Shown: positions 844-28,333, counted from the first letter of the stretch. The stretch: 56,151 nt of DNA from an uncultured Bacteroidota bacterium (GCA_913054375.1 CAJXIQ010000002.1:1-56151), one strand, 5' to 3'. Program-made: numbers and translations. Notes: a model not told the origin generated them from the sequence alone.

Positions 844-855
844 AATCTTTTCAAT

Positions 856-1419
856 TTAAGCGGCTTCTGCTTCTACAGCATCTACCTCTGGTATCATTCT
901 TTTTAATAGATTTTCGATCCCTGCTTTGAGCGTAAGCGTGCTGCTTGGACACCCACTGCATGAACCCTTCATCGTAACGGTAACAATGCCTTCTTCAAAA
1001 CTCTTAAAGTCGATAGCTCCTCCATCCATTTCTACAGCTGGTCTCACGTGATCTTCCAATAGTTGTTTTATTTTAATCACTACTTCAGATTCTTCTTCGT
1101 CTGTCAATGTTTCTCTAAGAACAACAATTGGCTTTTCTGCCTCGAGGTAGGCTTGTACAAATGCCTTGAGCTCAGGTATGATATCAAACCACTCAAAGCC
1201 TGATTTTTTCGTGACAGACACGAAATTGTTCATGATGAATACACCTTTTACAAAATCAAACCCAAATAGCTCTTTTGCCATGGGGCACTCATCAACACCT
1301 TCGTTGGTTCTGAAATCAATGCTATCGTTGGGCAAAATCATTTTGTTTGCTACGAATTTCATTGATTCTGGATTGGGGGTCTTTTCTGAATAAACAGTGA
1401 TAAGGTCTTGTAATTCCAT
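856..1419 (-). CDS. NifU-like Fe-S cluster scaffold/carrier (Nfu_N plus NifU C-terminal domain)
   Basis: YSEKTPNPESMKFV (Nfu_N-like) and GSCSGCPSSTLTLKAGIE (CXXC of the NifU C-domain). The ORF extends to 1467, but MELQDLITVY at 1419 fits the family N-terminus better. Confidence 0.85.
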   Translation of the reverse strand: MELQDLITVYSEKTPNPESMKFVANKMILPNDSIDFRTNEGVDECPMAKELFGFDFVKGVFIMNNFVSVTKKSGFEWFDIIPELKAFVQAYLEAEKPIVVLRETLTDEEESEVVIKIKQLLEDHVRPAVEMDGGAIDFKSFEEGIVTVTMKGSCSGCPSSTLTLKAGIENLLKRMIPEVDAVEAEAA

Positions 1420-1484
1420 TGTTATTTGTAACGTTTCAAAGGTAGCTATAGTTTTCATAGAATTCAAACACTATTCTGTCATCT

Positions 1485-4400
1485 TTATCTCATATTGTCG
1501 GTCTCGTTTTGGAGGAGGTCCTTAGCGCTGTAGCTTTTATTATTTAAATAGTACTTATTGAAGGTGCACCATTGACATGTATCCTCCTCGCATCCTTTCT
1601 CAAATTCTAACTTCTGTATCTTTGCAAAGGTCTCCGCGATTTGTTTTTTAACGAAAGTGTACTCATCGTCATTTACCATGATTTTAACCTTTTTGTACGT
1701 CTCTCCTTCTGGTTCTATAAAGTCGATCTCTCCCGATATAACTCTGAGGTTTTTTGTAGTATCGCTTTCTATCAAAGCCTTATAAAATAAGACTTGCCTC
1801 CAATAGTCTCCACCGTACCGTTTTTCAAAATTATCCTCATATGGATTGTCCTCCAGTAGCACGGGAGGTTTTACCTTTTTGACGCCGTACTTTACCTGAC
1901 CTGTCTTGAAATCTACAACATGTGCGGTGCCTTCATTAATGACTACTTTATCTATCTGCCCGCGAATAGGAACTCCGTCTATTTCACCGTTCTTGAGAGA
2001 CAATTCGGTGTGTATTTCGCCTTCTTCGCTCCAAGTAGCAGCATATTTATCATAGTACTTATTCAGAATATCAATTCCATAATATGTTCTTCTCTCTAGC
2101 CCTTCCAGTGTAAAAGCCTCTTTACTGCTATTCATCTGTGCAGTAAAACGCTTTTTAAGAAAATCCTTGGCTTCTTCTGCATCTTGCAAATCATCTAGGT
2201 TTTTGTACAAACCATCAAGAGCATTATGCACTGCCGTACCAAACGAGGAGCTCTCTCCCTTTGCCGAGGGTACACGCAATATATTTTGGTAAAAAAAGGC
2301 AACAGGACATCTCAAATAGCTATTTAAGTTTGTAGCACTAAGTCTAAAATTCTCTACTTCTTTCACTACAAAGTCTTGTTTCACGAGGTCGATATATTCC
2401 TCATTATTATGTGTAAGCATGAAGTCAAAAAAGTGTAATAAGTCGTCTTCATTTGCTTCCTGCTGTTGAAAAACTGCGGCTCCGCTTTCCTCTAACTCCA
2501 CTACAAATAAGCTCTTTGTTGAAGCTTTATCTGATTCATCTCGTAGAGCATAGCTGATTTCTATTCCTTTTCTGGCTCTAGTAATTGCTACATAAAAGAG
2601 CCTCCGTGATTCCTCTATATATGCCTTTTGAGGTTCTCCAGGAAACAGTAAGTTAAGCTTGTAGGGGAGTGCTTTTTTATCTTTTTCCCATTTCTTTTCT
2701 GTACAACCAATAGCAAACACATAGTCGTATTCTAGCCCTTTAGATCCATGTACAGTCATCAGGTTTACACCATTAATACCGTGTACTATTTTGGTAAGTT
2801 TTAATCCTATGTTATTGGATTTTAAAAGTTCTATTTTACGTAAAAATGCATGGAGCGATATGTAGGGTTCGCGAGCCGTTTCCTCTTTTAAAAAATTATA
2901 GTACGTCTTTAGGCACTGTATTTGAAATGTGGCATCTTTTGCAGATAATGCCCGTGCTACAAACCCCACCTTTGACATAATTCTCTCTACTAAATTTTGT
3001 AGGGTCACATTATGCATTTCCGTAATCCAAAACTCAATATCTGCTACAAAAGCCCTCAACTCACTTTTTGCTTCTTTTTCAATTTCCAATCCCGCGGCAG
3101 CGATATTCAGATGCTCACGCCAACCAACTAACCTGTTCTTTGCAATAACGTTGCTTATTCGAGCAATATCAAATGCCGATATATGCTTAAAATTGTGGTA
3201 ATGCAGAATTTCGAATAATAAGTGCTGACCAGTATCAAGGTTTTTGCTTTCTAAACTTAAGTATATCAAAAAGGTATTGAGTTGATGCACTAGTGGCACC
3301 TCTAGCACATTTTGTGTTTTAGCGACATTGTAGCTTATCTCTTCTGCCTCAAGGTATTTAATTAGTTCCACACTCTGACTGTGATTACGGTACATTATAC
3401 CAACATCGCTAAGTGATACACCATCTGCCTTTAGTTTTTTTAATTTGGCTGTAACACTTACTATCTCCTGAAAACTATTGGGGTATTCCACTATTTTCAG
3501 TGCGTTTAGTATGCCTGCTACGGAGTCGTTAGAGGCCACAATCTTCTTGTTTAAATTGTCCACCCTACCAACTAAGCGTTCGTCATTATGCTCTATTATT
3601 GCGTTGCTTCCATCTAAAATATTCTGGCTCGAACGATAGTTTTGATCCAATACAACCAGTTCTATGTCCTCCTCATATCGCTTAAAAAATTCAAAAATAT
3701 TTTCTACGTTGGCTCCTTGGAATTTGTACACCGACTGGTCATCATCACCTACAACAAACACATTGGGGTTTTCCCAATAATTTATCAACGTATAGAGCAA
3801 TTCATTTTGAGCACCATTGGTATCTTGATACTCATCTACCAAAAAATATTGATATGTCTCTTGATACTTGAGTAGTAAATCATCATTGTCTTTTAACGCG
3901 GAAATTACCCAGGTGATCATGTCATTAAAATCATAGCGTTTTCTCGCAGCTAGCTTTGAATCATAGGAATCTAGAAGCAAGGCCGCCTCCACTAACTTCT
4001 CTAAAGATTCCTTATCTGCATTATATTTACGTAGGTTAATATCTCCCTTTTGGTTCTCTCCTGATTTACGTTGGTATAGGTAGCTTTCATCGGTAAGCAT
4101 ATCCTCTAGCTTGGCTATCACTTTGGAATGGATATTTGCCGCCGTCAGATGATCTTTTTTCATCAATCCGAACAGTTTTAGTAAGTTTTTTATATCATAA
4201 TAAACATCCCCAACATACCGCTTTATTTTGCTGCTGTTTGGAAGTTCATCTACAATCTCTTTCATGACTTCCAGTACTTCTAGTTCAGATACAGGATCTA
4301 AGTCTTGTATTCCAAAAAGGTCTTTGTTTTCTTGTATAACCGTATTGCAAAATCCGTGGTACGTATATACATTCACTTTATAGGACTGAGAACCCATAAA

Positions 4401-4628
4401 TTGGTTCAATCGCATTCTTAGTGCAGTAGTTGCAGCCTCTGTAAAAGTTAAACATAGTATGTTTTCTGGGCTAGTATCTGTATTTTTTACAATACTGGCA
4501 ACGCGAGCTCCTAGGACTTGTGTTTTGCCCGTTCCTGGGCCTGCTACTACCATTACACTGCCTTCTGTTGTATCTACCGCTTTTTGTTGATTTGGATTTA
4601 GTGTTGTGTATACTTCTTCGAATGTCAT
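1485..4628 (-). CDS. UvrD/PcrA-family ATP-dependent helicase fused to a C-terminal PD-(D/E)XK nuclease domain (AddA/AddB-like)
   Basis: Walker A AGPGTGKTQVL and motif II VDEYQDTN. C-terminal nuclease motifs GQIDKV...VVDFKTG and YWRQVLFYKAL. Four Cys (CPVAFF and CEEDTCQWC) resemble the AddB/Cas4 Fe-S staple. Confidence 0.85.
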   Translation of the reverse strand: MTFEEVYTTLNPNQQKAVDTTEGSVMVVAGPGTGKTQVLGARVASIVKNTDTSPENILCLTFTEAATTALRMRLNQFMGSQSYKVNVYTYHGFCNTVIQENKDLFGIQDLDPVSELEVLEVMKEIVDELPNSSKIKRYVGDVYYDIKNLLKLFGLMKKDHLTAANIHSKVIAKLEDMLTDESYLYQRKSGENQKGDINLRKYNADKESLEKLVEAALLLDSYDSKLAARKRYDFNDMITWVISALKDNDDLLLKYQETYQYFLVDEYQDTNGAQNELLYTLINYWENPNVFVVGDDDQSVYKFQGANVENIFEFFKRYEEDIELVVLDQNYRSSQNILDGSNAIIEHNDERLVGRVDNLNKKIVASNDSVAGILNALKIVEYPNSFQEIVSVTAKLKKLKADGVSLSDVGIMYRNHSQSVELIKYLEAEEISYNVAKTQNVLEVPLVHQLNTFLIYLSLESKNLDTGQHLLFEILHYHNFKHISAFDIARISNVIAKNRLVGWREHLNIAAAGLEIEKEAKSELRAFVADIEFWITEMHNVTLQNLVERIMSKVGFVARALSAKDATFQIQCLKTYYNFLKEETAREPYISLHAFLRKIELLKSNNIGLKLTKIVHGINGVNLMTVHGSKGLEYDYVFAIGCTEKKWEKDKKALPYKLNLLFPGEPQKAYIEESRRLFYVAITRARKGIEISYALRDESDKASTKSLFVVELEESGAAVFQQQEANEDDLLHFFDFMLTHNNEEYIDLVKQDFVVKEVENFRLSATNLNSYLRCPVAFFYQNILRVPSAKGESSSFGTAVHNALDGLYKNLDDLQDAEEAKDFLKKRFTAQMNSSKEAFTLEGLERRTYYGIDILNKYYDKYAATWSEEGEIHTELSLKNGEIDGVPIRGQIDKVVINEGTAHVVDFKTGQVKYGVKKVKPPVLLEDNPYEDNFEKRYGGDYWRQVLFYKALIESDTTKNLRVISGEIDFIEPEGETYKKVKIMVNDDEYTFVKKQIAETFAKIQKLEFEKGCEEDTCQWCTFNKYYLNNKSYSAKDLLQNETDNMR

Positions 4629-4738
4629 TGCAGGGGCAATATGAGTGTTTTTTTTTATTTGCTTGTAGTAAGGCCTTTAATTGTCAAAAAAAAATGACAG
4701 CGATAACCGGAACTCTTTAAGGATATTTGACTCTAATT

Positions 4739-7700
4739 ATGAAAACAAGAGTATTAATGAAAGTAAAGAATTATACCTTCAGGGGGGTTGTCTCAGTATT
4801 ACTCACGTTTGCTGCGGGTTTTTCGATGGCACAAACGCAATACTGTTCGTCACGATCATACAGCCCAGAGAACACCAAATGTGATCGTGTTGAATTAGTG
4901 GGAGAATCTGTGACTATTGATGTAAACTCGTCGCATCTTGGATGCGAATTGTACACGGATAACACAGCACTCCCTGCCGCAGATATGGCTGCAGGAAAGT
5001 CTTATACAGTTTCTATAGAAGCAGGTTCATGTTCTCGCGATCTTAGACTTAACGTTAGAACTAATGTGTGGATAGATTACAACAATGACGGCGACTTTAC
5101 AGATGCAGGTGAAATGCTCAGTGACGGCAGTTCCTTAAGAACGACAGTCAATATCAACTTTAAAGTCCCTTGTAGTGCAAAATCGGGAATGACTAGGATG
5201 AGAGTTATAGTCATAGAACAACCTGCAGCCTTAACCAACCCGTGTGGTTCTTTCCCCTTTGGTGAAACAGAAGACTATACAGTACTGATTACAAATCCTA
5301 AAAGAGTAACTAGCGCATTCTTTATACCAGACACTGCTTTTACTGGAACTTTGGTGAACATAACTAACTCCAATCAAAACGGTTATCTATCTCACGAATG
5401 GACTATCGACGGGACAAAAACTTCTACAGTTAATACAGGTTACGCATTTTCTCCTGCAGGCACATACGATGTAAAACTTAAAAGCACCAACTGTCTTGGA
5501 ACCGATTCTACTACGAAAAGTATTGTGATTGTCGATCCTACGGCACCTGCCGTTTCAGATTTTGTTTCAGATAAAAACGTTGTCGAACTATATGAACCTG
5601 TAAGTTTAATCGATTTAAGTACCAACGGCCCTACCTATTGGAATTGGGTTATTAGCAATGGTGTAGACACCATAGATGGTGACGATGACCCTTCTCTTAG
5701 AGGAGGTAATCCACGCATCAACCAAAACCCTATTATATACACTTCAAATGGGAATAGTACAGTAGGTCTAGGTGTATGGACTGTTACACTTACTGCATCT
5801 AACGCTATCAACGGTTCTGCACCAGAAACAAAGATTGGATACATAACTGTACAACGCTCCTCGTATAACATGGGTGCAGCTACTGCTCTTCCTGCAGGTG
5901 TCATCACTATACCAAGTGGTGAGCTATTTGACAAAGGTGGGCCGACTGGCAACTACAGCTCTCCAGATTACAACGAAGCTCTTATTGCTCCGTGTGGTGC
6001 TCAAAGCGTAACACTAGAGTTTACTCAATTTGAAGTTCGTGCAAATGCAACACTCAAAATATATGACGGCTTGAATGCTCTTGCTACTCCTTTACACACG
6101 GGTAACGGATACACACTGGGTAACGAACCTACTGGACCGATTACAGCTTCATCTGGAGCTATGTACCTTCTTTGGACGACAAGAGCAGGTGTTAATACCG
6201 TTGGGTTTGCTGCTAATTGGTCTTCTGTGGATGGTGTAGTAGGCGCTACTCCTGTAGCTGGTTTTACATTGCCTAATACGACTTTATATAACACTGTTCC
6301 TGTATCATTTAAAAACACTTCTTTAAATGCCGGTGGTAATACTGCCCTTGAGTGGACACTTACTGGACCAGAGAATTTCACATCTAACTTAACCGATTTT
6401 GATTATACATTCCTCTCCAATGGTAGCTACACACTCTCTCTTAAAGCAATTACTTGTGACAACCAAGTAAGTACATCAACACAGTCTTTTACTGTAGTTT
6501 CTCCTACGACGCCTACCAATCTTGATTTTGTCGCTGACAATCAAAGACCTAATATAGGTGATGCTGTTACGATAACAGCTACTAGCGATAAAGCAAATAA
6601 CTGGGAATGGTCTATTTTCCCTTTAACGGGATGGGAAGCAGATACACGTCCAAATACATCCAATGTACGATCATTTACATTTAACCAACCAGGGGTTTAT
6701 ACGGTACAGTGTAGAGCGTATAACTCTACGAACGAATTGGCCTCTGAAGCTACGGTTGTGAAAACGTCTTACATCCTTGTAGTTGAATATTGTACTCCTA
6801 TTATCGGGGTTACTACTTCCACTGATATAGGCATAAGCTACTTTAGTTTAACTGACCCTCTATCTGGTACGTCTTTCGAAAACAGCTCAGCTACAGGTGT
6901 AGAATATACAGACTACTCTGACCTTGGTGCTATTGACCTTAATTTTGGAGGTACGTATACCTTCGAAGTTAAAAGACCTAGTAACGTAAATGATATGTCT
7001 CGCAAAATGTGGATCGATTGGAACGTAGATGGTGACTTTGATGATGCCGGTGAAGAAGTAGCTGCTGAAGCTGTAGGTAACAACATGTCTTGGACCAGTT
7101 CTTTCACTGTTCCAGATGCTAATACTGCTTTTGAAGCAACTACCAGAGCTCGTATTGGAGTATCGTATGATACAGATCCTAACGAAGCGTGTGGGGCTTC
7201 TTCTAACCCAAATGCTAACCGTATTGGTGAGTTTGAGGACTACCTTATTCGTGTAGTAAACGATGGAGATGAGCCTGTAATCACTCTAATAGATGCAGAT
7301 ACTGTATTTATAGAGCAAAATGCCACTCCACCTTACGTAGCCCTAGGTGCTACAGCACTAGATCCTTCTCAAGGCGACATTTCGGGTAATATTACAATTA
7401 CTTCTGACCTGGATCAGTCTCTTGCTGGGGTATACTACGAGGTATACAATGTTATGGATGCATCAGGAAATCCTGCAGAACCCGTTACGCGTGTAATATA
7501 TGTTGTAGCTGACCAAACGGCTCCAGCAATTACAATCAATGGAGCAAACGATGTTACTATTGAAGTTGGTACTCCTTATGTAGATCTTGGAGCTACTGCT
7601 CTAGATAATACTGAAGGCGACCTTACAGCTGCTATTGTAATTTCAGGTAACGTAGATGAAAATTTGCTCGGTGTTTACACTATTACATACAGCATCCAAG

Positions 7701-8809
7701 ATAATCAAGGTAATGCATCTTCTGAAACACGTACTGTACGTGTAATAGATTCACAACTGCCTATCATTGACAATGCTAGTGCCGATAAATCAACTGCGTG
7801 CTGGACTGTAGAAGTTCAACTCCAAAATATATTTGCGGATATCACTTCGGCTTCTGATAACTACAACAGTATAGGTAGTGGTTTAACATTTACTGCTACT
7901 CCAGCTTCTCCACAAGGAGGTGCAGCTGTAGATACACGTTTCCAGGGTACCACCTCAGTTACGTATACGGCTACAGACGAAAGTGGTAACATCACCATAC
8001 AGTGTGTAGACTATGTAGTAAGAGACTACGTTGCTCCAGAAATAAGCCTACGTACACTAGATGTTGTAAACCACAGAGTGAACACTCCGTACACACCAAT
8101 AAGCGCAACTGCTTCTGATAACTTATACTCAAGTACTCAGATCAGTTTAACTTCGACATCTAACGTAGATGCTTATGTGCTTGGTACATACCAAGATACC
8201 TATACCGCTACAGATGCAGCGGGTAATACAACTACTAAAGTTAGAACAGTAAATGTAATTGACGACTTGAGCCCGGTAATAAGCGGTAAATCAGGCGGTG
8301 TACTTACAGTGGGTGTTGGTTCTAGTGTTGATGCACTTGACTATATTACTTTCACCGATAACTATGACGCTCCAGGTGATCTATTGACAAACCACACCCT
8401 AGTCTATAACAATATCAATTTACAAGAAGCTGGTTTATACTCAGCGGTATTTAGAACTGAAGATAACTCAGGTAACCGTTCTAATGAATTTACCTTGTAT
8501 GTTCATGTTAAATACAACTATGATGTAATCACGAATAGTGTAAATGACCTCAACTTGGAAGATTTACTAAGTGTTAATCCTAATCCAACTTCGGGTAATG
8601 TTAACATCAATGTAAACCTTCCTGAAAATGAAGTGATCAACCTTGCTATCTTTAACACTATGGGCCAGCAAGTGGCACTAGTTAAAAATGGTAAAGCTCA
8701 AAACGGAACCTTTAACGTTAGCCTAGCTAACCAAGCAGATGGTATATACTACGTTCAAATGAACGTTCAAAATAAAATCATCACGAAAAAAATCGTTTTG
8801 AATAAATAG
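4739..8809 (+). CDS. Giant T9SS-secreted multidomain adhesin-like protein, copy 1 (GEVED head, PKD, CUB-like, second GEVED, Ig-like/DUF5011-type repeats, T9SS CTD)
   Basis: The track ORF begins at TTG 4727; the first ATG (4739) gives MKTRVLMKVKNYTFRGVVSVLLTFAAGFSMAQ. GEVED-type motifs: VWIDYNNDGDFTDAGE...FGETEDY and MWIDWNVDGDFDDAGE...IGEFEDY. PKD-like WTIDGTK...YDVKLKSTNCLG. CTD SVNPNPTSGNVNINV...GIYYVQMNV...KKIVLNK. Confidence 0.85.
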   Translation: MKTRVLMKVKNYTFRGVVSVLLTFAAGFSMAQTQYCSSRSYSPENTKCDRVELVGESVTIDVNSSHLGCELYTDNTALPAADMAAGKSYTVSIEAGSCSRDLRLNVRTNVWIDYNNDGDFTDAGEMLSDGSSLRTTVNINFKVPCSAKSGMTRMRVIVIEQPAALTNPCGSFPFGETEDYTVLITNPKRVTSAFFIPDTAFTGTLVNITNSNQNGYLSHEWTIDGTKTSTVNTGYAFSPAGTYDVKLKSTNCLGTDSTTKSIVIVDPTAPAVSDFVSDKNVVELYEPVSLIDLSTNGPTYWNWVISNGVDTIDGDDDPSLRGGNPRINQNPIIYTSNGNSTVGLGVWTVTLTASNAINGSAPETKIGYITVQRSSYNMGAATALPAGVITIPSGELFDKGGPTGNYSSPDYNEALIAPCGAQSVTLEFTQFEVRANATLKIYDGLNALATPLHTGNGYTLGNEPTGPITASSGAMYLLWTTRAGVNTVGFAANWSSVDGVVGATPVAGFTLPNTTLYNTVPVSFKNTSLNAGGNTALEWTLTGPENFTSNLTDFDYTFLSNGSYTLSLKAITCDNQVSTSTQSFTVVSPTTPTNLDFVADNQRPNIGDAVTITATSDKANNWEWSIFPLTGWEADTRPNTSNVRSFTFNQPGVYTVQCRAYNSTNELASEATVVKTSYILVVEYCTPIIGVTTSTDIGISYFSLTDPLSGTSFENSSATGVEYTDYSDLGAIDLNFGGTYTFEVKRPSNVNDMSRKMWIDWNVDGDFDDAGEEVAAEAVGNNMSWTSSFTVPDANTAFEATTRARIGVSYDTDPNEACGASSNPNANRIGEFEDYLIRVVNDGDEPVITLIDADTVFIEQNATPPYVALGATALDPSQGDISGNITITSDLDQSLAGVYYEVYNVMDASGNPAEPVTRVIYVVADQTAPAITINGANDVTIEVGTPYVDLGATALDNTEGDLTAAIVISGNVDENLLGVYTITYSIQDNQGNASSETRTVRVIDSQLPIIDNASADKSTACWTVEVQLQNIFADITSASDNYNSIGSGLTFTATPASPQGGAAVDTRFQGTTSVTYTATDESGNITIQCVDYVVRDYVAPEISLRTLDVVNHRVNTPYTPISATASDNLYSSTQISLTSTSNVDAYVLGTYQDTYTATDAAGNTTTKVRTVNVIDDLSPVISGKSGGVLTVGVGSSVDALDYITFTDNYDAPGDLLTNHTLVYNNINLQEAGLYSAVFRTEDNSGNRSNEFTLYVHVKYNYDVITNSVNDLNLEDLLSVNPNPTSGNVNINVNLPENEVINLAIFNTMGQQVALVKNGKAQNGTFNVSLANQADGIYYVQMNVQNKIITKKIVLNK

Positions 8810-8875
8810 GAATATCCATTCTTGTACTAATAAAAAGGCCCAACTAATGTTGGGCCTTTTTATTTTCAGTTTTTT
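5305..8875 (+). repeat. Direct repeat copy A (3571 nt): adhesin body plus terminator
   Basis: Matches 9687-13258 at a constant offset of +4382 through the stop codon. The sense translation and four antisense ORFs are duplicated exactly. Spot-checked lines are base-identical. Confidence 0.95.
8837..8866 (+). terminator. Rho-independent terminator of adhesin copy 1
   Basis: ggcccaac-taat-gttgggcc hairpin followed by tttttatttt. Confidence 0.8.
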
Positions 8876-8951
8876 ACATCAGCTATATGTCATTCATATT
8901 CAAGTATTTACGCCTAAAACATGATATTTATAAAACGCCAAATGCATTTTT

Positions 8952-8979
8952 TTTGCAACCTTATAGCCACATTAGTGTC
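8952..8979 (+). promoter_or_regulatory. Candidate ECF-type promoter upstream of adhesin copy 2 (TTTGCAACC-N12-TAGTGTC)
   Basis: The same 9-mer and 7-mer with the same 12-nt spacing occur at 13257-13284 ahead of the ECF sigma gene. The spacer itself is mostly different. Confidence 0.45.
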
Positions 8980-8987
8980 AAATTATT

Positions 8988-8995
8988 TAGATTTG
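8988..8995 (+). promoter_or_regulatory. Bacteroidetes -7 box (TAGATTTG) upstream of adhesin copy 2
   Basis: Exact match to TAnnTTTG, 38 nt upstream of ATG 9034. Confidence 0.4.
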
Positions 8996-9033
8996 ACATA
9001 CATTTTTAGTCCTACACGTAAATAAATTAATAC

Positions 9034-12000
9034 ATGAAAAAAAACATTACAACACTTAAATTCAGCTTTAACGCCCTAACAAAGGGTATCATGCTGCTTG
9101 CAGGTTACATTCTGCTCTCTTTTGGTTCATACGCTCAGTACCCCGTAGCGATACATTCCAACCAGTTTGGTTATGTATCATGCGCCGAATCTGCGATAGC
9201 ATTGGTGCAAGTAGAAGATGACAAAGGGAATATTGTCTTTACAAAAACAGATGATTGTAATGGACCGACAACCGTATTTGGTACTACTGCTAATCCAGTA
9301 TTTACACTTTCTGCAGGATCCAGTTATACTATACGTATTAATACAGTGGGTAGAACACCAGTATCTTCTTTTTTTGATACAAGGTCAACTGGAGCCATTT
9401 ATCTTGATTATAATAACGATTTTGACTTTACTGATGCAGGAGAATATATAACTACAGGACAGACAGGACAGGATATTCCAGGAGCTATAGGCAATAATAC
9501 TTATCCTCCTGCCCCTGCAACTTCAAGAGCAAAAACCTTCACTGTACCATGTACCGCTGTTGGTGGAATCACACGTTTACGTGTCCGTACATCTGACTTT
9601 TCGGGTGTTAGTGCTGCCACTTCATCCAGTCGATTTACTGATGGCGAAACAGAAGATTTTGTAATAAACATTGCAAAACCAGCTTCAGTAACTAGCGCAT
9701 TCTTTATACCAGACACTGCTTTTACTGGAACTTTGGTGAACATAACTAACTCCAATCAAAACGGTTATCTATCTCACGAATGGACTATCGACGGGACAAA
9801 AACTTCTACAGTTAATACAGGTTACGCATTTTCTCCTGCAGGCACATACGATGTAAAACTTAAAAGCACCAACTGTCTTGGAACCGATTCTACTACGAAA
9901 AGTATTGTGATTGTCGATCCTACGGCACCTGCCGTTTCAGATTTTGTTTCAGATAAAAACGTTGTCGAACTATATGAACCTGTAAGTTTAATCGATTTAA
10001 GTACCAACGGCCCTACCTATTGGAATTGGGTTATTAGCAATGGTGTAGACACCATAGATGGTGACGATGACCCTTCTCTTAGAGGAGGTAATCCACGCAT
10101 CAACCAAAACCCTATTATATACACTTCAAATGGGAATAGTACAGTAGGTCTAGGTGTATGGACTGTTACACTTACTGCATCTAACGCTATCAACGGTTCT
10201 GCACCAGAAACAAAGATTGGATACATAACTGTACAACGCTCCTCGTATAACATGGGTGCAGCTACTGCTCTTCCTGCAGGTGTCATCACTATACCAAGTG
10301 GTGAGCTATTTGACAAAGGTGGGCCGACTGGCAACTACAGCTCTCCAGATTACAACGAAGCTCTTATTGCTCCGTGTGGTGCTCAAAGCGTAACACTAGA
10401 GTTTACTCAATTTGAAGTTCGTGCAAATGCAACACTCAAAATATATGACGGCTTGAATGCTCTTGCTACTCCTTTACACACGGGTAACGGATACACACTG
10501 GGTAACGAACCTACTGGACCGATTACAGCTTCATCTGGAGCTATGTACCTTCTTTGGACGACAAGAGCAGGTGTTAATACCGTTGGGTTTGCTGCTAATT
10601 GGTCTTCTGTGGATGGTGTAGTAGGCGCTACTCCTGTAGCTGGTTTTACATTGCCTAATACGACTTTATATAACACTGTTCCTGTATCATTTAAAAACAC
10701 TTCTTTAAATGCCGGTGGTAATACTGCCCTTGAGTGGACACTTACTGGACCAGAGAATTTCACATCTAACTTAACCGATTTTGATTATACATTCCTCTCC
10801 AATGGTAGCTACACACTCTCTCTTAAAGCAATTACTTGTGACAACCAAGTAAGTACATCAACACAGTCTTTTACTGTAGTTTCTCCTACGACGCCTACCA
10901 ATCTTGATTTTGTCGCTGACAATCAAAGACCTAATATAGGTGATGCTGTTACGATAACAGCTACTAGCGATAAAGCAAATAACTGGGAATGGTCTATTTT
11001 CCCTTTAACGGGATGGGAAGCAGATACACGTCCAAATACATCCAATGTACGATCATTTACATTTAACCAACCAGGGGTTTATACGGTACAGTGTAGAGCG
11101 TATAACTCTACGAACGAATTGGCCTCTGAAGCTACGGTTGTGAAAACGTCTTACATCCTTGTAGTTGAATATTGTACTCCTATTATCGGGGTTACTACTT
11201 CCACTGATATAGGCATAAGCTACTTTAGTTTAACTGACCCTCTATCTGGTACGTCTTTCGAAAACAGCTCAGCTACAGGTGTAGAATATACAGACTACTC
11301 TGACCTTGGTGCTATTGACCTTAATTTTGGAGGTACGTATACCTTCGAAGTTAAAAGACCTAGTAACGTAAATGATATGTCTCGCAAAATGTGGATCGAT
11401 TGGAACGTAGATGGTGACTTTGATGATGCCGGTGAAGAAGTAGCTGCTGAAGCTGTAGGTAACAACATGTCTTGGACCAGTTCTTTCACTGTTCCAGATG
11501 CTAATACTGCTTTTGAAGCAACTACCAGAGCTCGTATTGGAGTATCGTATGATACAGATCCTAACGAAGCGTGTGGGGCTTCTTCTAACCCAAATGCTAA
11601 CCGTATTGGTGAGTTTGAGGACTACCTTATTCGTGTAGTAAACGATGGAGATGAGCCTGTAATCACTCTAATAGATGCAGATACTGTATTTATAGAGCAA
11701 AATGCCACTCCACCTTACGTAGCCCTAGGTGCTACAGCACTAGATCCTTCTCAAGGCGACATTTCGGGTAATATTACAATTACTTCTGACCTGGATCAGT
11801 CTCTTGCTGGGGTATACTACGAGGTATACAATGTTATGGATGCATCAGGAAATCCTGCAGAACCCGTTACGCGTGTAATATATGTTGTAGCTGACCAAAC
11901 GGCTCCAGCAATTACAATCAATGGAGCAAACGATGTTACTATTGAAGTTGGTACTCCTTATGTAGATCTTGGAGCTACTGCTCTAGATAATACTGAAGGC

Positions 12001-13191
12001 GACCTTACAGCTGCTATTGTAATTTCAGGTAACGTAGATGAAAATTTGCTCGGTGTTTACACTATTACATACAGCATCCAAGATAATCAAGGTAATGCAT
12101 CTTCTGAAACACGTACTGTACGTGTAATAGATTCACAACTGCCTATCATTGACAATGCTAGTGCCGATAAATCAACTGCGTGCTGGACTGTAGAAGTTCA
12201 ACTCCAAAATATATTTGCGGATATCACTTCGGCTTCTGATAACTACAACAGTATAGGTAGTGGTTTAACATTTACTGCTACTCCAGCTTCTCCACAAGGA
12301 GGTGCAGCTGTAGATACACGTTTCCAGGGTACCACCTCAGTTACGTATACGGCTACAGACGAAAGTGGTAACATCACCATACAGTGTGTAGACTATGTAG
12401 TAAGAGACTACGTTGCTCCAGAAATAAGCCTACGTACACTAGATGTTGTAAACCACAGAGTGAACACTCCGTACACACCAATAAGCGCAACTGCTTCTGA
12501 TAACTTATACTCAAGTACTCAGATCAGTTTAACTTCGACATCTAACGTAGATGCTTATGTGCTTGGTACATACCAAGATACCTATACCGCTACAGATGCA
12601 GCGGGTAATACAACTACTAAAGTTAGAACAGTAAATGTAATTGACGACTTGAGCCCGGTAATAAGCGGTAAATCAGGCGGTGTACTTACAGTGGGTGTTG
12701 GTTCTAGTGTTGATGCACTTGACTATATTACTTTCACCGATAACTATGACGCTCCAGGTGATCTATTGACAAACCACACCCTAGTCTATAACAATATCAA
12801 TTTACAAGAAGCTGGTTTATACTCAGCGGTATTTAGAACTGAAGATAACTCAGGTAACCGTTCTAATGAATTTACCTTGTATGTTCATGTTAAATACAAC
12901 TATGATGTAATCACGAATAGTGTAAATGACCTCAACTTGGAAGATTTACTAAGTGTTAATCCTAATCCAACTTCGGGTAATGTTAACATCAATGTAAACC
13001 TTCCTGAAAATGAAGTGATCAACCTTGCTATCTTTAACACTATGGGCCAGCAAGTGGCACTAGTTAAAAATGGTAAAGCTCAAAACGGAACCTTTAACGT
13101 TAGCCTAGCTAACCAAGCAGATGGTATATACTACGTTCAAATGAACGTTCAAAATAAAATCATCACGAAAAAAATCGTTTTGAATAAATAG
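9034..13191 (+). CDS. Giant T9SS-secreted multidomain adhesin-like protein, copy 2 (different GEVED-type head, identical body)
   Basis: Signal/anchor LTKGIMLLAGYILLSFGSYAQ. Head has IYLDYNNDFDFTDAGE...DGETEDF. From VTSAFFIPDTAF to the stop it is identical to copy 1 (1167 aa). Confidence 0.85.
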   Translation: MKKNITTLKFSFNALTKGIMLLAGYILLSFGSYAQYPVAIHSNQFGYVSCAESAIALVQVEDDKGNIVFTKTDDCNGPTTVFGTTANPVFTLSAGSSYTIRINTVGRTPVSSFFDTRSTGAIYLDYNNDFDFTDAGEYITTGQTGQDIPGAIGNNTYPPAPATSRAKTFTVPCTAVGGITRLRVRTSDFSGVSAATSSSRFTDGETEDFVINIAKPASVTSAFFIPDTAFTGTLVNITNSNQNGYLSHEWTIDGTKTSTVNTGYAFSPAGTYDVKLKSTNCLGTDSTTKSIVIVDPTAPAVSDFVSDKNVVELYEPVSLIDLSTNGPTYWNWVISNGVDTIDGDDDPSLRGGNPRINQNPIIYTSNGNSTVGLGVWTVTLTASNAINGSAPETKIGYITVQRSSYNMGAATALPAGVITIPSGELFDKGGPTGNYSSPDYNEALIAPCGAQSVTLEFTQFEVRANATLKIYDGLNALATPLHTGNGYTLGNEPTGPITASSGAMYLLWTTRAGVNTVGFAANWSSVDGVVGATPVAGFTLPNTTLYNTVPVSFKNTSLNAGGNTALEWTLTGPENFTSNLTDFDYTFLSNGSYTLSLKAITCDNQVSTSTQSFTVVSPTTPTNLDFVADNQRPNIGDAVTITATSDKANNWEWSIFPLTGWEADTRPNTSNVRSFTFNQPGVYTVQCRAYNSTNELASEATVVKTSYILVVEYCTPIIGVTTSTDIGISYFSLTDPLSGTSFENSSATGVEYTDYSDLGAIDLNFGGTYTFEVKRPSNVNDMSRKMWIDWNVDGDFDDAGEEVAAEAVGNNMSWTSSFTVPDANTAFEATTRARIGVSYDTDPNEACGASSNPNANRIGEFEDYLIRVVNDGDEPVITLIDADTVFIEQNATPPYVALGATALDPSQGDISGNITITSDLDQSLAGVYYEVYNVMDASGNPAEPVTRVIYVVADQTAPAITINGANDVTIEVGTPYVDLGATALDNTEGDLTAAIVISGNVDENLLGVYTITYSIQDNQGNASSETRTVRVIDSQLPIIDNASADKSTACWTVEVQLQNIFADITSASDNYNSIGSGLTFTATPASPQGGAAVDTRFQGTTSVTYTATDESGNITIQCVDYVVRDYVAPEISLRTLDVVNHRVNTPYTPISATASDNLYSSTQISLTSTSNVDAYVLGTYQDTYTATDAAGNTTTKVRTVNVIDDLSPVISGKSGGVLTVGVGSSVDALDYITFTDNYDAPGDLLTNHTLVYNNINLQEAGLYSAVFRTEDNSGNRSNEFTLYVHVKYNYDVITNSVNDLNLEDLLSVNPNPTSGNVNINVNLPENEVINLAIFNTMGQQVALVKNGKAQNGTFNVSLANQADGIYYVQMNVQNKIITKKIVLNK

Positions 13192-13258
13192 GAATATCCA
13201 TTCTTATACTAATATTGAAGGCCCAACTAATGTTGGGCCTTTTTATTTTCAGTTTTTT
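9687..13258 (+). repeat. Direct repeat copy B (3572 nt)
   Basis: See copy A. The only differences seen lie in the about 30 nt after the stop codon (G/A at 8824/13206; aaaaa vs attgaa before the terminator stem). Confidence 0.95.
13220..13249 (+). terminator. Rho-independent terminator of adhesin copy 2
   Basis: Same ggcccaac-taat-gttgggcc hairpin plus T-run as at 8837-8866. Confidence 0.8.
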
Positions 13259-13284
13259 TGCAACCATTCTATGACAATAGTGTC
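13257..13284 (+). promoter_or_regulatory. Candidate autoregulated ECF-type promoter (TTTGCAACC-N12-TAGTGTC)
   Basis: AAC-type -35 and GTC-type -10 elements at ECF-like spacing, 20 nt upstream of the sigma start codon. The motif is duplicated at 8952-8979. Confidence 0.5.
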
Positions 13285-13304
13285 TAACCTAATACAAGAG
13301 CAAA

Positions 13305-13838
13305 TTGATTAGTGACCAAGAACTTATACAACGATGTAAGAACAACGATCAGTCTGCTCAAAAAATGCTCTTTGAAAAGTATGCCAATAGAATGATGGCA
13401 GTTTGCATGAGGTACTGTAAAAACCAAGATGACGCAAAAGACTTGCTTCAAGACGGGTTTTACAAAGTCTTTGTAAATATCAAGACGTTTAAAGGTAATA
13501 GTACCATTTCCACTTGGATGACTCGTGTTTTTATAAACCTAGCACTAAACAAACAACGCTTAGGTAGAAATAAATACGACCACTATGAGTTTGATCCTGC
13601 AAAGGAAAAAGCTACCGAGGACCCATACCAAGAGGAACCGCCAGCCATTGCACCAGAAAAGGTGCTAGCTGCACTAAACCAACTTCCCGATATTTATAAG
13701 ATTGTATTAAACATGTACGCTGTAGACAGTATGTCTCACAAAGAAATAGCCAAAAAACTTGGCATTTCTGTAGGATCATCTAAAAGCAGGCTTTCCAGAG
13801 GACGTGTATTGCTGAATACTTTGTTACAAAACAAATAG
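13305..13838 (+). CDS. ECF-subfamily RNA polymerase sigma-70 factor
   Basis: Region 2 DLLQDGFYKVF and region 4 HTH MSHKEIAKKLGISVGSSKSRLSRGR. 177 aa, TTG start. Confidence 0.9.
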   Translation: MISDQELIQRCKNNDQSAQKMLFEKYANRMMAVCMRYCKNQDDAKDLLQDGFYKVFVNIKTFKGNSTISTWMTRVFINLALNKQRLGRNKYDHYEFDPAKEKATEDPYQEEPPAIAPEKVLAALNQLPDIYKIVLNMYAVDSMSHKEIAKKLGISVGSSKSRLSRGRVLLNTLLQNK

Positions 13839-13848
13839 AGGCTTTAGA

Positions 13849-15162
13849 TTGGATAATTTACAACATATCGACGACCTGCTCAGACAAGCATCCCAAGTGC
13901 CCGCCAATGCCTTGGTGAATGCCTCTGACTGGGCAGTAGTTGAGAAGAGATTGAAGCGACGGAAGAACCGTATATACACTGTATGGTTTTTTCTAGCTTT
14001 AATTTCTGTATCTAGTCTTGGAGTACTCATTCACCACGAAAACTCCAACGCGCCTATTGAACATATTGCAAAGGCTCCACGCTCAATAGCAGATACGCAT
14101 AATAACCTTCTGAATTCCCAAGATACACAACACGTTAAGATTGTAGAATCTACTCATAAAAGCCACCTAAGGCCAATAGCACCGGAGACCCGCGTAAACC
14201 ATACTCAAACAGTTCACATCCCTGCTACACCAGCGCACACCCGTACAACTAACGCTGTAAGCACACCGACACGATCCACTGAACATGTTCCGTATACGCC
14301 TTCGAAGGCCTTTACCTTGCTACCTATTCGTAGCCAGCTACCATCGCCATCCACAGAAACTGTTCCTCCAAATACACTGCACCTGATCCCACTCACTAAA
14401 ATAGTACGCACCGCAACTGTCGCAAAAACGATCAGTACGCATGAAAACACCTTACCTGACCACGAAACACACTGGGAAATAGGTATATCCTTTACACCTA
14501 GCCTATCCAGCAAAATCACTTCTGAAAACGCACGATTAAATGGACTAATAAACCGATCTTACTATGACAAAGTAGCGAACAGCGAAACCTCAGCGTTTTC
14601 GAATACTTTTGGCTTTAACACGCAGTACCATGCCAAAAAGTGGTTTATTTCCTCTGGCTTATTTATGACACAACGCACAGAACAGCTGGACTACAACTAC
14701 CAAATCACTGAAGGCCCTAACCATAATGCTACGGTAATTTATGGATATGTACCACTAGACCCACAATCATACGAATCTGTTGTTTATTCCGGGGCAAATT
14801 CATATCATTTCCTTGAAATCCCGCTAAACATTGGGTATAAGACAAGTATTTCACCTAACTTTGAGATAAGAACTCAATTGGGAGCATCCTATATGGCACT
14901 CCTAAGTAGAGAAGGGAAGAAAGGTAACTTCACCACTCTGGAGTTAGAAGATTTAAAGGATTTGCAATTTGCACAACACAATATCGCTGCTAATATAAAG
15001 ACAGGTGTCTACTTGAATAAGCAACGCTTTGTTCTCGGTGTAGAGCCGTTATTTGGCATTAACCTTAACTCACTAAGACCAGCAGAAACGTCAGCTATCA
15101 AAACAAAACCGTATGGATACGGGCTCAATATCACTAGTGCTATTAAACTCTTTAAACTATGA
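13849..15162 (+). CDS. Putative membrane-anchored anti-sigma-like protein with His/Thr/Pro-rich linker and C-terminal OM beta-barrel (PorT/OMP_b-brl_2-like) domain
   Basis: Starts 10 nt after the sigma stop. About 45-aa N-terminal soluble segment, then TM IYTVWFFLALISVSSLGVLI, then an about 150-aa H/T/P-rich segment. The C-terminal alternating-strand region has YHFLEIPLNIGYK and ends in IKLFKL. Confidence 0.55.
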   Translation: MDNLQHIDDLLRQASQVPANALVNASDWAVVEKRLKRRKNRIYTVWFFLALISVSSLGVLIHHENSNAPIEHIAKAPRSIADTHNNLLNSQDTQHVKIVESTHKSHLRPIAPETRVNHTQTVHIPATPAHTRTTNAVSTPTRSTEHVPYTPSKAFTLLPIRSQLPSPSTETVPPNTLHLIPLTKIVRTATVAKTISTHENTLPDHETHWEIGISFTPSLSSKITSENARLNGLINRSYYDKVANSETSAFSNTFGFNTQYHAKKWFISSGLFMTQRTEQLDYNYQITEGPNHNATVIYGYVPLDPQSYESVVYSGANSYHFLEIPLNIGYKTSISPNFEIRTQLGASYMALLSREGKKGNFTTLELEDLKDLQFAQHNIAANIKTGVYLNKQRFVLGVEPLFGINLNSLRPAETSAIKTKPYGYGLNITSAIKLFKL

Positions 15163-17594
15163 GAAGAATAGTATTACATATCGCTGCTCTACTCATCGTA
15201 TGTGCCATGCAAGCACAGATCCTTGCCCCTATGGGTAAAGGATTACCTGCTGCGCCCGACAAGATCGCAAACCATAAAGGTGGCGTAGTTGCTGCTTATG
15301 GTGATAGAGATAATGTCATTAATCTGCAAGTCTGGAATGGCGATTTCTGGTATACATTACCCACCCCAACTTTACCAAAAACAGGTGTTTCCTCTTTGGG
15401 TACCTACAAAATACTTGATTTAATCAGTTTTGAGAATGATATATACCTCATGACTGGATATGACCAAAGCCTTCAGGACGAGGCTACGAATAGCATTTTG
15501 AAATGGAACGGTCTTAGTTGGAGTAATATCAGTGACAATAAGATTTCCAAAAGTTTAGGGTTAAACACCCTTGTAATTGAAGATCAAGCTCTCAAGTGCA
15601 TTGGAAAATTTAAAGAAGGGAATACTGAAGCAAATATTGCGCGTTTTACGGGTTCAAGCTGGTCCTTGGAAGGTAACCTCATCACCAGCAATATAGAAAG
15701 TGATAATTTTACTAGTGTAGTCAAAAAAGGTGAAAATGTTTTTGCCACAGGAAGATTCACAAATCCGCTAGATAACAATCTTTCATTGGTAATGTGGAAC
15801 GGACTAGCGTGGTCATTAACTGATTTTCCGCCTTTTCTAGATAAAAACATTGCCCTTGGAACATACCAAGACAAGATTGTCGTTTTCGGTAAATCGAACT
15901 TTACCACAGCCCCTATTAAGATAAGTCAAGGAAATAACTGGACAGATCTAGCAAATGGACTAGAAAACTACACCGTACAAAATATTTCTCAATTTGCTGA
16001 ATTGGACGGACAACTCATGGCTCTTGGTTCATTTGTCAATAACCAGACAGCGGAACAAACTAAGCTTATGCTTTATGACGGTGAGCAATGGAATCCTTCT
16101 AATGTTGTCCTAAACCAAATTGACCAGATTCATTCATTTGGGAACGTAGTAGCCATAAGCGGCGACTACGATGACAATGGTATACTACGCGGCATTGGCC
16201 AGATTTATGCGGATAAAGCACAGGTAATTACGCGTGTGTTTAATGATAAAAATGGCGACTGTAAAAAAGACGAAGACGAGGATTGGCTGAGGCATTATCC
16301 GGTAAGTATAAATGAAGCACGCCTAGCCCCAACAGGAGATAATGGCGTTCTTTACGCTCAAATAGAAAAAAATAAGCGTTACACTATCAATGCTGCTAAC
16401 TACAGACATTTTGTTCCAACGTGTGACGATATACAGCTAGAGACAACAACGTATAAAACGTACTTTGAAAGTGCCCTTGGTGCAAGACAAGTATTAGGCA
16501 TTAGTGATGCTCAAATATATCTTACTGATAATCAAGGAAATAAGTATTTGTCTGGCGAAGAAAGAGAAGCCATACTCTGTGTATCTAATCTAGGAAGTCA
16601 GCCCATAACAGATGCGACAGTCTCATTAAGCCTGCCACAAGGCTTAGGGAATTTTACATCAGATATAGCTCCAGATGCGGTCACAGATAATATTGCTACA
16701 TGGACAATCAGCCTATCCTCTTCTACTCAAAAGTGCATTGTATTAAACTACAATCTGGGTGGTATTGATGACCAAACGTTGACTGCAGAGGTAGTGCTAG
16801 CTGATGGTGTAGCAGACGAAGACATAACAAATAATCAGTCTGACTTCACCTACTATACAGGAGAATCCTTGTCCAACAACAAGCAGTGCTTAAGCGGCGA
16901 GAATATTAGCCCTTCTGAACACCAACTGCGGTATAAAATAAATATTAAGAATGATAATGCAGCTACCGTCAAAGCCATCAAAATAGTAGACATCCTAGAT
17001 GATGATATTATTAGAAGTGTAAAAGGTATTTATATCACTACAAGTCATCCAGACGCTACAAATTACACCGACTACGAGTTTGTAACCAATGAGAACGGCA
17101 AGCAAGCATTAAAATTGATTACTACCATAGAAGGTGTTTCCATTCCACGTGCTAGTGAAAATGACGTTCTTTCTAGGGCCTTTATAGACTATCAGATTGG
17201 GATTCGTGGCGACCTTATGATCGAGGATGCAGAAATTTGTAATACGGCTAAGATTTACCTTTCATTTGATAATGGCGTATACGGAGAGGCACTTGTCACC
17301 AACACCGTATGTAGCTACATGAGTGAAACGCTTGGTATTACAAACAGCATTGACCTACCCCCTTCTATTGACGATTTAGACATAGGACCAAATCCGGTTT
17401 CTGATAAGGTTGTAATATCAAATAGCAGACACAATTCAGTGCGTATATCTGTGCTAAATAGTCTGGGTCAAAAGCTTACGCAGATAGATGTAAAGGAACA
17501 CTCGAACGTACGACTAGATGTGTCGCAATACCGCCCAGGTATATATTTCCTATATGCTAATGGACTATTTGCCAAGAAAATTGTTATCCATTAA
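15159..17594 (+). CDS. T9SS-secreted protein: six-bladed propeller-like repeats, SdrD-B/DUF11-like repeats, T9SS CTD
   Basis: ATGA overlap with the upstream gene. Six WNGxxW-type repeats: VWNGDFW, KWNGLSW, FTGSSW, MWNGLAW, SQGNNW, YDGEQW. VFNDKNGDCKKDEDED. CTD IGPNPVSDKVVISN...GIYFLYANGLFAKKIVIH. Confidence 0.75.
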   Translation: MRRIVLHIAALLIVCAMQAQILAPMGKGLPAAPDKIANHKGGVVAAYGDRDNVINLQVWNGDFWYTLPTPTLPKTGVSSLGTYKILDLISFENDIYLMTGYDQSLQDEATNSILKWNGLSWSNISDNKISKSLGLNTLVIEDQALKCIGKFKEGNTEANIARFTGSSWSLEGNLITSNIESDNFTSVVKKGENVFATGRFTNPLDNNLSLVMWNGLAWSLTDFPPFLDKNIALGTYQDKIVVFGKSNFTTAPIKISQGNNWTDLANGLENYTVQNISQFAELDGQLMALGSFVNNQTAEQTKLMLYDGEQWNPSNVVLNQIDQIHSFGNVVAISGDYDDNGILRGIGQIYADKAQVITRVFNDKNGDCKKDEDEDWLRHYPVSINEARLAPTGDNGVLYAQIEKNKRYTINAANYRHFVPTCDDIQLETTTYKTYFESALGARQVLGISDAQIYLTDNQGNKYLSGEEREAILCVSNLGSQPITDATVSLSLPQGLGNFTSDIAPDAVTDNIATWTISLSSSTQKCIVLNYNLGGIDDQTLTAEVVLADGVADEDITNNQSDFTYYTGESLSNNKQCLSGENISPSEHQLRYKINIKNDNAATVKAIKIVDILDDDIIRSVKGIYITTSHPDATNYTDYEFVTNENGKQALKLITTIEGVSIPRASENDVLSRAFIDYQIGIRGDLMIEDAEICNTAKIYLSFDNGVYGEALVTNTVCSYMSETLGITNSIDLPPSIDDLDIGPNPVSDKVVISNSRHNSVRISVLNSLGQKLTQIDVKEHSNVRLDVSQYRPGIYFLYANGLFAKKIVIH

Positions 17595-18280: not shown

Positions 18281-18324
18281 TTAATGCTCAAATTAGGTGA
18301 AATACAAGACCTTTGCAACTATCT

Positions 18325-28253: not shown

Positions 28254-28259
28254 GTTAAG

Positions 28260-28333
28260 TGGGCCCACCTGGACTCGAACCAGGGACCACCTGATTATGA
28301 GTCAGGTGCTCTAACCAGCTGAGCTATAGGCCC
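28260..28333 (-). tRNA. tRNA with anticodon CAT (elongator Met or Ile2/lysidine type); no encoded CCA
   Basis: Minus strand reads GGGCCTATAGCTCAGCTGGTTAGAGCACCTGACTCATAATCAGGTGGTCCCTGGTTCGAGTCCAGGTGGGCCCA. It folds by eye into a cloverleaf with a 7-bp acceptor stem, a CCTGA/TCAGG anticodon stem and a GGTTCGAGTCC T-arm. Confidence 0.9.

Follow-up and report, generated by a model that had tools for sequence, protein, structure and literature searches.

How can two adjacent genes carry bodies that do not differ at a single position when the domains in front of those bodies are barely alike? The question is raised by a tandem gene pair on a 56,151-nucleotide (nt) contig from a metagenome-assembled genome (MAG) of an uncultured Bacteroidota bacterium (GCA_913054375.1 CAJXIQ010000002.1:1-56151); this whole stretch is called the window below, and coordinates are counted from its first letter. 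The two genes probably encode surface-located cargo of the type IX secretion system (T9SS). Our preferred answer, to which we give a probability of about 0.8, is that they are old tandem paralogues of a T9SS surface protein whose bodies appear to have been homogenised by recurrent gene conversion, with the N-terminal domains (heads) lying outside the converted tract.

The repeat and its two genes

The pair is made up of the following elements (UTR, untranslated region; aa, amino acids).

4757..8809, + strand: gene 1, 1350 aa, predicted to be a multidomain surface protein secreted by the T9SS; in-frame starts also exist at 4739 and 4727
4832..5304, + strand: head 1 (type h1), the mature N-terminal GEVED-type beta-sandwich module, outside the identical tract
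5305..8823, + strand: body copy 1, equal to copy 2; the first 3505 nt are coding (1167 aa and the stop codon) and the last 14 nt belong to the 3' UTR
8824..8880, + strand: diverged 3' edge of copy 1, aligning with 13206-13262 with about 5 differences; GC-rich intrinsic terminator hairpin at 8829-8864 (terminator scan, inverted repeat)
9034..13191, + strand: gene 2, 1385 aa, a paralogue of gene 1 with another signal peptide and head and an identical body
9034..9686, + strand: putative signal peptide and head 2 (allele h2a), outside the identical tract
9687..13205, + strand: body copy 2, an exact repeat of copy 1
13206..13262, + strand: diverged 3' edge of copy 2, with a GC-rich terminator hairpin at 13217-13242

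Direct base-by-base comparison found no mismatch over 3519 nt between 5305-8823 and 9687-13205, at an offset of 4382 nt. A preliminary description of this DNA had equated 5305-8809 with 9687-13191, placed the identity at the DNA level and read the same 1167 residues from both copies. All of this holds: the complete alignment is free of substitutions, scattered or otherwise, and the exact run is even longer, overshooting both stop codons by 14 nt. The antisense open reading frames (ORFs) that it saw recurring at +4382 are present as well, as a trivial outcome of the identity. An exact repeat of 3.5 kb within 56 kb, which here takes up 84% of the gene, far exceeds chance expectation. The GC content of the pair is that of its flanks and gives no signal of foreign DNA.

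The identity has definite borders on both sides. Upstream of 5305, identity at the same offset is about 20-45%, which is the random level, and this border sits just past the head domain. The abrupt stop at a domain border, with diverged GEVED heads upstream, had been remarked on before and was borne out. The two heads of the window share only about 29% of their residues, and their synonymous divergence (dS) is saturated. Past the 3' end of the exact run, another 58 nt or so can still be aligned, terminator hairpin included, with about five substitutions or indels; beyond that point the copies are unrelated. Each of the two genes is followed by a terminator of its own.

According to Pfam and NCBIfam, both proteins, which have their last 1167 residues in common, display the same domain order: a signal peptide-like N-terminus, the GEVED head, a PKD domain, a CUB-like domain, two further PKD domains, an internal GEVED domain, three Bact_surface_Ig-like (DUF5011) domains, a HYR-like domain and a type A C-terminal sorting domain. 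The assignment of the latter to the T9SS type A class rests on TIGR04183 (40.3 and 40.2 bits for a cut-off of 23), and PF18962 matches as well (43.4 and 43.7 bits, cut-off 27). The GEVED family (PF20009, cut-off 24.4) matches two stretches in each protein, with 118.1 bits for gene 1 (best stretch 108-182) and 80.4 bits for gene 2. Read by eye from the translations, both N-termini pass from a basic to a hydrophobic stretch and end in A-Q (MKVKNYTFRGVVSVLLTFAAGFSMA followed by Q, and MKKNIT...LLSFGSYA followed by Q). The start of gene 1 at 4757 agrees with the database protein P0002 and lines up with the MRKNNYLIK... start of its orthologues. Further proteins with T9SS C-terminal domains are encoded nearby (172-843 and 15159-17594), and the relatives belong to the Bacteroidia. 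The domain content suggests that both products are T9SS cargo, probably located at the cell surface, and would fit an adhesin role. Of the "two tandem giant T9SS adhesin genes" of the preliminary description, the tandem T9SS cargo with type A sorting domains stands, whereas "giant" does not suit proteins of only 1350-1385 aa.

Divergence of the pair within and between genomes

Relatives were collected by a protein search and by one scan each of genome and metagenome collections; all are uncultured Bacteroidia, and they are labelled here by L numbers. The order helicase (- strand), h1-headed gene, h2-headed gene and extracytoplasmic function (ECF) sigma factor gene recurs in at least five other lineages. 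The DNA identity between the two tandem copies of one genome is given below, for the body unless stated otherwise.

L005 (= L002), MAG M30B35, 2.4-Mb contig: 99.1% over 3556 nt
L004, single-cell genome AH-578-I02: 99.8% over 3594 nt, with one difference inside the body
L080, ENA contig: 100% over about 3.1 kb
L012, 1.3-Mb contig: 95.8%
L006, complete MAG chromosome: 92.2% when the entire duplicated unit of 4417 nt is compared, heads included; 64 differences in 3365 nt of body

Paralogous bodies of the same genome are 97-100% identical at the protein level, whereas bodies from different genomes share 61-84% of their residues (the window versus L004, 84%; versus L005, 76%; versus L012, 61%). Synonymous divergence follows the same partition: body dS lies between 0 and 0.10 for paralogues. 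For orthologues it rises to 0.35-0.74 among the closest lineages, and for L005, L006 and L012 it is almost saturated, at 1.6-3.2. In neighbour-joining trees the heads group by type, with h1 and the two head-2 alleles h2a and h2b each forming a clade with 100% bootstrap, whereas the bodies group by genome (91-100% bootstrap). The ends of the identical tract also vary. At its 5' side it stops at about residue 193-194 in both the window and L004; in L080 the stop lies some 270 nt further 3'. In L005 the differences near the border form a gradient, and there is also a clustered patch; the pairs of L012 and L019 are mosaics with patches of 78-90% within sequence that is 98-100% identical. The pair thus combines the three marks of concerted evolution, namely paralogues that are closer than orthologues, a duplication older than the lineages, and variable tract ends with mosaics.

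The following mechanism would account for these observations. Intrachromosomal homologous recombination between the direct repeats, presumably RecA-dependent, would keep the 3.5-kb bodies identical or nearly so in each genome. Conversion tracts would stop at the GEVED heads because these are too diverged to pair, which may explain the abrupt 5' border, and the 3' border would simply be the end of homology just beyond the terminator. The outcome would be one homogenised stalk bearing two heads, with a separate signal peptide, promoter region and terminator for each; both genes are presumably expressed. The same direct repeats could also produce single-gene deletion derivatives, and the conserved flanks of the heads could allow head alleles to be replaced between strains.

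The heads themselves behave as two old types. Head 1 of the window is 55-57% identical to the first-gene heads of L080, L004 and L005, and 49% identical to the h1-type head that L003 carries in second position; the first-gene heads of the window, L080, L004 and L005 share 55-71% of residues with one another (49-71% once the L003 head is added), against about 20-30% with head 2 of their own genome. Nonsynonymous divergence (dN) is 0.09-0.47 among head-1 orthologues versus about 0.9 between h1 and h2. Head 2 occurs as h2a in the window, L001 and L080 and as h2b in L004 and L005. The version in the window matches L001 at 92% identity and the head region of L080 at about 70%. Against the second-gene heads of L004 and L005 the value falls to 29-32%, and against those of L091 and L092, which form a third allele, h2c, to about 35%. 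A sequence-based search against solved structures returned only matches for the Ig-like (DUF5011) and C-terminal domains, and none for the heads. An AlphaFold (AF2) model of head 1 built with 19 homologues is a confident all-beta sandwich (pLDDT 88). Among PDB entries it most resembles an accessory domain of the GH85 endoglycosidase endo-beta-N-acetylglucosaminidase HS (9x1i_A; TMq 0.75, E 7e-9); the remaining matches are generic Ig-like folds. The predicted fold hints at glycan or ligand binding, nothing more, and an adhesive or ligand-binding role of the heads is conceivable.

Copy number and head repertoire, which the preliminary description had proposed to compare among related genomes, both vary, with one-gene forms, three-gene arrays and the head types h1, h2a, h2b and h2c. 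The three-gene arrays are found in L019 (2431-15854) and L013 (1-10253), with 76-92% identity. Whole-gene tandem duplicates occur in L018 (1-8747; 100% over 4286 nt, at the contig start and possibly an artefact) and in L056 (6989-15618; 99.1% over 4260 nt, differing only in the signal peptide). In L003, the scaffold begins (1-300) right within the 3' UTR and terminator found behind a body copy. Its second-position gene, which is followed by the sigma factor gene, combines an h1-like head (49-62% identical) with a signal peptide nearly identical to that of the head-1 genes of L004 and L080, a combination unique among the loci compared. A single copy was also considered as the ancestral state, given that the L007/L008/L086 clade has one gene; it was dropped since h1-type heads occur in very distant family members.

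Strain variants and the weighing of explanations

Several contigs belong to strains of the same species as the window (96-99% nucleotide identity), their flanks being 98.6-99.1% identical to it at the nucleotide level, and among these strains the body diverges by 1-4%. Three independent assemblies carry gene 2 only: L001 (1-480), L091 (9560-10010) and L094 (about 9610-10000), the L091 locus lying in the middle of a 190-kb contig with 20x coverage. Their layout runs from the helicase through a CGGAAC/CTTTAAC junction to the last ~105 nt of the body, the intergenic region, gene 2 and the sigma factor gene. Gene 1 was lost between microhomologies of 12-13 nt (CGGAAC[T]CTTTAA), which lie in the window at the following positions.

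4708..4720, + strand: upstream arm CGGAACTCTTTAA, at the junctions in L001, L091 and L094
8704..8715, + strand: downstream arm CGGAACCTTTAA, 105 nt ahead of the stop codon of body copy 1, at the junctions in L001, L091 and L094

The remnant of about 105 nt differs from the intact gene tail at 5-6 positions, which suggests that so short a stretch is no longer homogenised and that long homology is needed. The reciprocal form, with gene 1 only, is represented by L081 (whole contig, 5891 nt) and L093 (1-5300), both 98.6-99.3% identical to the window, in which gene 1 comes after the helicase and is followed by a 3' UTR of the gene-2 variant and then by the sigma factor gene. This is the product expected of a crossover from body to body, an assembler path that skips the loop being the alternative. 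L081 and the window differ at 28 positions, clustered at 5656-5821 and 6159-6186, with none across 6187-8823. The deletion variants and population heterogeneity foreseen from the direct repeat are thus found in part: the gene-1-only contigs fit this expectation, but the commonest deletion, the loss of gene 1, took place through a 12-13-nt microhomology rather than through recombination between the repeats.

Variation among strains also affects the heads. The allele h2c, present in L091 (10110-10817) and L092 (146-850), follows a signal peptide nearly identical to that of gene 2 in the window. Over residues ~38-270 (some 230 positions that take in the head and the first PKD domain) identity to gene 2 of the window drops to about 35%, and similarity resumes at the end of the first PKD domain. 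The nearest heads to h2c belong to distant lineages (L089, 49%; L010, 45%). Head 2 therefore exists in at least three alleles of about 30-35% mutual identity on a nearly identical signal peptide, and the earlier image of a constant stalk with exchangeable tips is borne out at the population and evolutionary scales, with both the signal peptide and the body conserved.

Is the pair of the window possibly a product of assembly? It could stem from a chimeric walk through a strain with gene 1 only and another with gene 2 only, each genome holding a single body, or from a duplicated collapse. The window is metagenome-derived, the gene-1-only (L081, L093) and gene-2-only (L001, L091, L094) contigs would together yield its layout, and related assemblies often break at repeat borders, L003 starting in the 3' UTR after a body and L082 ending 45 nt into the second body. 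Nevertheless, we consider this origin quite improbable. The tandem pair was assembled independently in a single-cell genome and in a 2.4-Mb contig, both with single-nucleotide differences specific to each copy, and the 105-nt remnant in gene-2-only strains shows that a full gene 1 once preceded gene 2 in the recent ancestor of the species. In addition, the tail of copy 1 in the window agrees with the intact body and not with the remnant variant, and the 3' UTR that follows it (G...AAAA) is absent from all single-gene strains compared. Since strains differ by 1-4% in the body, a two-strain chimera with no difference at all would moreover be unexpected. The preliminary description had also offered a very recent duplication followed by head replacement. 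Zero substitutions in 3519 nt would fit such an event, near-identical whole-gene tandem duplicates do exist in the family (L018, L056) and head alleles can be replaced, as in L091. This alternative fails because the pair is old and syntenic across lineages, with an orthologue body dS of 0.35 to >2 next to within-genome bodies of 95.8-100% DNA identity. Even in the version in which each lineage duplicated independently and kept near-identical bodies, it appears very improbable. The h1 and h2 types are orthologous across long-diverged genomes, each type clade having 100% bootstrap, and gene order and flanks are conserved, so that at least five independent events, each rebuilding the h1-h2 order, would be needed; mosaic patches and shifted borders fit repeated conversion rather than a single event.

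A programmed system that places alternative heads on one expressed stalk, by silent cassettes or by a site-specific or invertible switch (as in pilE/pilS, MgPa or shufflons), would share with our locus the constant body, the variable head and the presence of several head alleles in the population. We hold its probability to be close to negligible, as both genes are complete, with start codon, putative signal peptide, sorting domain and own terminator, and promoterless partial cassettes are absent. Besides, no recombinase, invertase or reverse transcriptase is encoded by the nine neighbouring ORFs scanned (172-19398), and the heads and promoters have no flanking inverted repeats. Dedicated switching machinery is not evident at the locus from its sequence. 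An invertible or shufflon-type switch was rejected as a candidate for lack of suitable inverted repeats or a recombinase, and duplication mediated by a mobile element for lack of a transposase among the scanned neighbours.

Some observations weigh against concerted evolution by gene conversion, or at least restrict it. An assembler that walks a collapsed repeat twice gives two identical copies by construction, and for the window, as a metagenome or MAG contig, the presence of both copies in one genome is read from the assembled contig; its exact 100% may really be about 99-100%. In the more distant L013, L020, L045, L047 and L052, the tandem copies have only 74-82% DNA identity. Homogenisation, as judged from these comparisons, is not universal in the family, which appears to range from fully homogenised to escaped pairs. 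Finally, the spread of head-2 alleles departs from the relationships of bodies and flanks, L080 being nearer to L004 in body and head 1 yet carrying a head 2 of the window type. Because the alleles do not track these relationships, head exchange or differential loss has apparently also occurred.

Beyond homogenisation by gene conversion, the identical bodies might serve as a recombination scaffold. The tips would then be changed at appreciable frequency, between a two-head, a head-1-only and a head-2-only state and by uptake of foreign alleles via the signal-peptide and body flanks, with head 2 under a separate promoter of an envelope-stress ECF sigma factor and with frequency-dependent selection, for instance by phage, grazers or substrate specificity. 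We regard this extension as tentative and on balance unlikely. If true, it would describe a modular system of one stalk with interchangeable and differently regulated tips.

Known parallels, neighbouring genes and a candidate promoter motif

The finding is real and is well explained by a known mechanism. The tufA/tufB genes and the rRNA operons are old duplicates that reportedly stay near-identical within a genome through RecA-dependent gene conversion. In those cases the whole functional unit is homogenised, whereas the homogenisation proposed here is partial and leaves a diverged, functionally distinct module outside. The closest known parallel is provided by the outer-membrane adhesin paralogues babA/babB and homA/homB of Helicobacter pylori. 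In that account, their 3' segments are alike within a strain through concerted evolution by intragenomic gene conversion, most likely RecA-dependent (PMC3960876, citing Pride and Blaser 2002), while the other segment is alike between strains and diverged between paralogues; copy number and locus occupancy vary (PMC3960876). Compared with the case described there, our genes are adjacent in tandem rather than dispersed, and homogenisation covers far more sequence (3.5 kb, 84% of the gene), the C-terminal T9SS sorting signal being part of it. They encode T9SS cargo in uncultured marine Bacteroidia instead of autotransporter-like Hop proteins of a pathogen, and, unlike in the H. pylori account, no phase-variable repeats were seen at the locus of the window.

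Among T9SS cargo genes, the closest parallel is found in rgpA, kgp and hagA of Porphyromonas gingivalis, which contain identical adhesin repeats within and between genes. These repeats defeat automated assembly, and homologous recombination, gene conversion and allelic exchange are discussed by the authors as sources of surface diversity (PMC5266723). Those gingipain and HagA genes are dispersed, encode protease domains and have internally reiterated adhesin modules, in contrast to two tandem genes with one long unique body in which only the N-terminal module differs. Our literature search found no description of concerted evolution in this T9SS GEVED family and returned only the P. gingivalis study (PMC5266723). 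The GEVED domain was defined from the streptococcal fibrillar adhesin CshA, and domain shuffling has been proposed as a route to new adhesins (PMC10952558). CshA and CshB resemble our proteins in combining GEVED (PF20009), repeated stalk-type domains and a surface-anchoring signal (PMC10952558). In CshA, however, GEVED comes after the ligand-binding domain NR2 and is counted as "the GEVED stalk domain" (PMC10952558), whereas here a GEVED-type beta-sandwich is itself the variable N-terminal module, with a second GEVED inside the body, and a T9SS C-terminal domain takes the place of LPXTG as the anchor. Gene conversion between repeated surface-protein sequences also makes or keeps variation in pilE/pilS of Neisseria and in MgPa/MgPar of Mycoplasma genitalium (PMC2169797). 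Those silent-cassette systems have one expression site and promoterless partial donors and act to diversify, whereas conversion between the two complete genes of the window would homogenise.

What distinguishes our locus is the unusual clarity and depth with which it exemplifies partial concerted evolution in bacteria: the duplication predates lineages now about 61% identical in the same protein, and conversion would halt at a domain border, leaving two different N-terminal modules on one stalk. Near-identical tandem T9SS genes of this kind break or mislead short-read metagenome assembly, and MAGs probably understate both the copy number and the range of heads of such surface proteins. The strain variants, namely the two single-gene forms and the three head-2 alleles, make this locus a hotspot of microdiversity at the cell surface of an uncultured marine lineage.

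The neighbours of the pair are ordinary chromosomal genes, among them a NifU-like gene and the genes listed below together with two candidate promoter motifs.

172-843, - strand: small protein with a T9SS domain
1485-4628, - strand: helicase of the UvrD type with a fused PD-(D/E)XK nuclease; its AddA/RecB-like matches are weak and stay below the cut-offs
8953..8982, + strand: TTGCAACC-N14-GTGTCAAA, an ECF-type promoter motif that precedes gene 2 by 52 nt
13258..13287, + strand: TTGCAACC-N14-GTGTCTAA, the second ECF-type promoter motif, immediately ahead of the ECF sigma factor gene
13305..13838, + strand: ECF sigma factor gene (Pfam Sigma70_r2 and r4_2; TIGR02937, 87 bits for a cut-off of 42.9), kept downstream of the pair in relatives; candidate regulator of gene 2
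13849-15162: protein of 437 aa that matches neither Pfam nor NCBIfam; by its position, a possible anti-sigma factor
15159-17594: DUF7619 protein of 811 aa with a T9SS sorting domain

The region is, by these predictions, rich in T9SS cargo. No insertion sequence or transposase had been noted around the repeat, and in agreement with this no transposase, integrase or other mobile-element gene, recombinase, invertase or reverse transcriptase was found by Pfam and NCBIfam among the nine neighbouring ORFs scanned within 172-19398. For a diversity-generating retroelement, no reverse-transcriptase domain was present in these nine ORFs, template and variable repeats being unsearched and most of the window unscanned. 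The search for inverted repeats flanking the heads or promoters yielded solely a terminator hairpin and chance matches.

The motif TTGCAACC-N14-GTNTCWAA has two matches in the 56-kb window versus 0.01 expected. We take it to resemble ECF-type promoters in having an AAC-containing -35 element and a GTC-containing -10 element. The copy in front of the sigma factor gene is kept in twelve relatives (L001, L003, L004, L005, L080, L081, L084, L006, L007, L008, L086 and L087), and the motif also precedes family genes in several relatives. Gene 2 may thus belong to the regulon of the adjacent sigma factor, the upstream region of gene 1 being different. A scan with the sigma-70 consensus gave 28 promoters versus 24 expected, i.e. 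no enrichment, with a consensus that is ill-suited to Bacteroidota.

The helicase-nuclease gene is the conserved upstream neighbour in all close relatives and is split in L080 into ORFs of 758 and 262 aa; its position next to a recombining locus is probably a coincidence. The only Rfam match in the window is a single tRNA-Met (CAT) at 28259-28333 (- strand), far from the repeat locus and unrelated to it.

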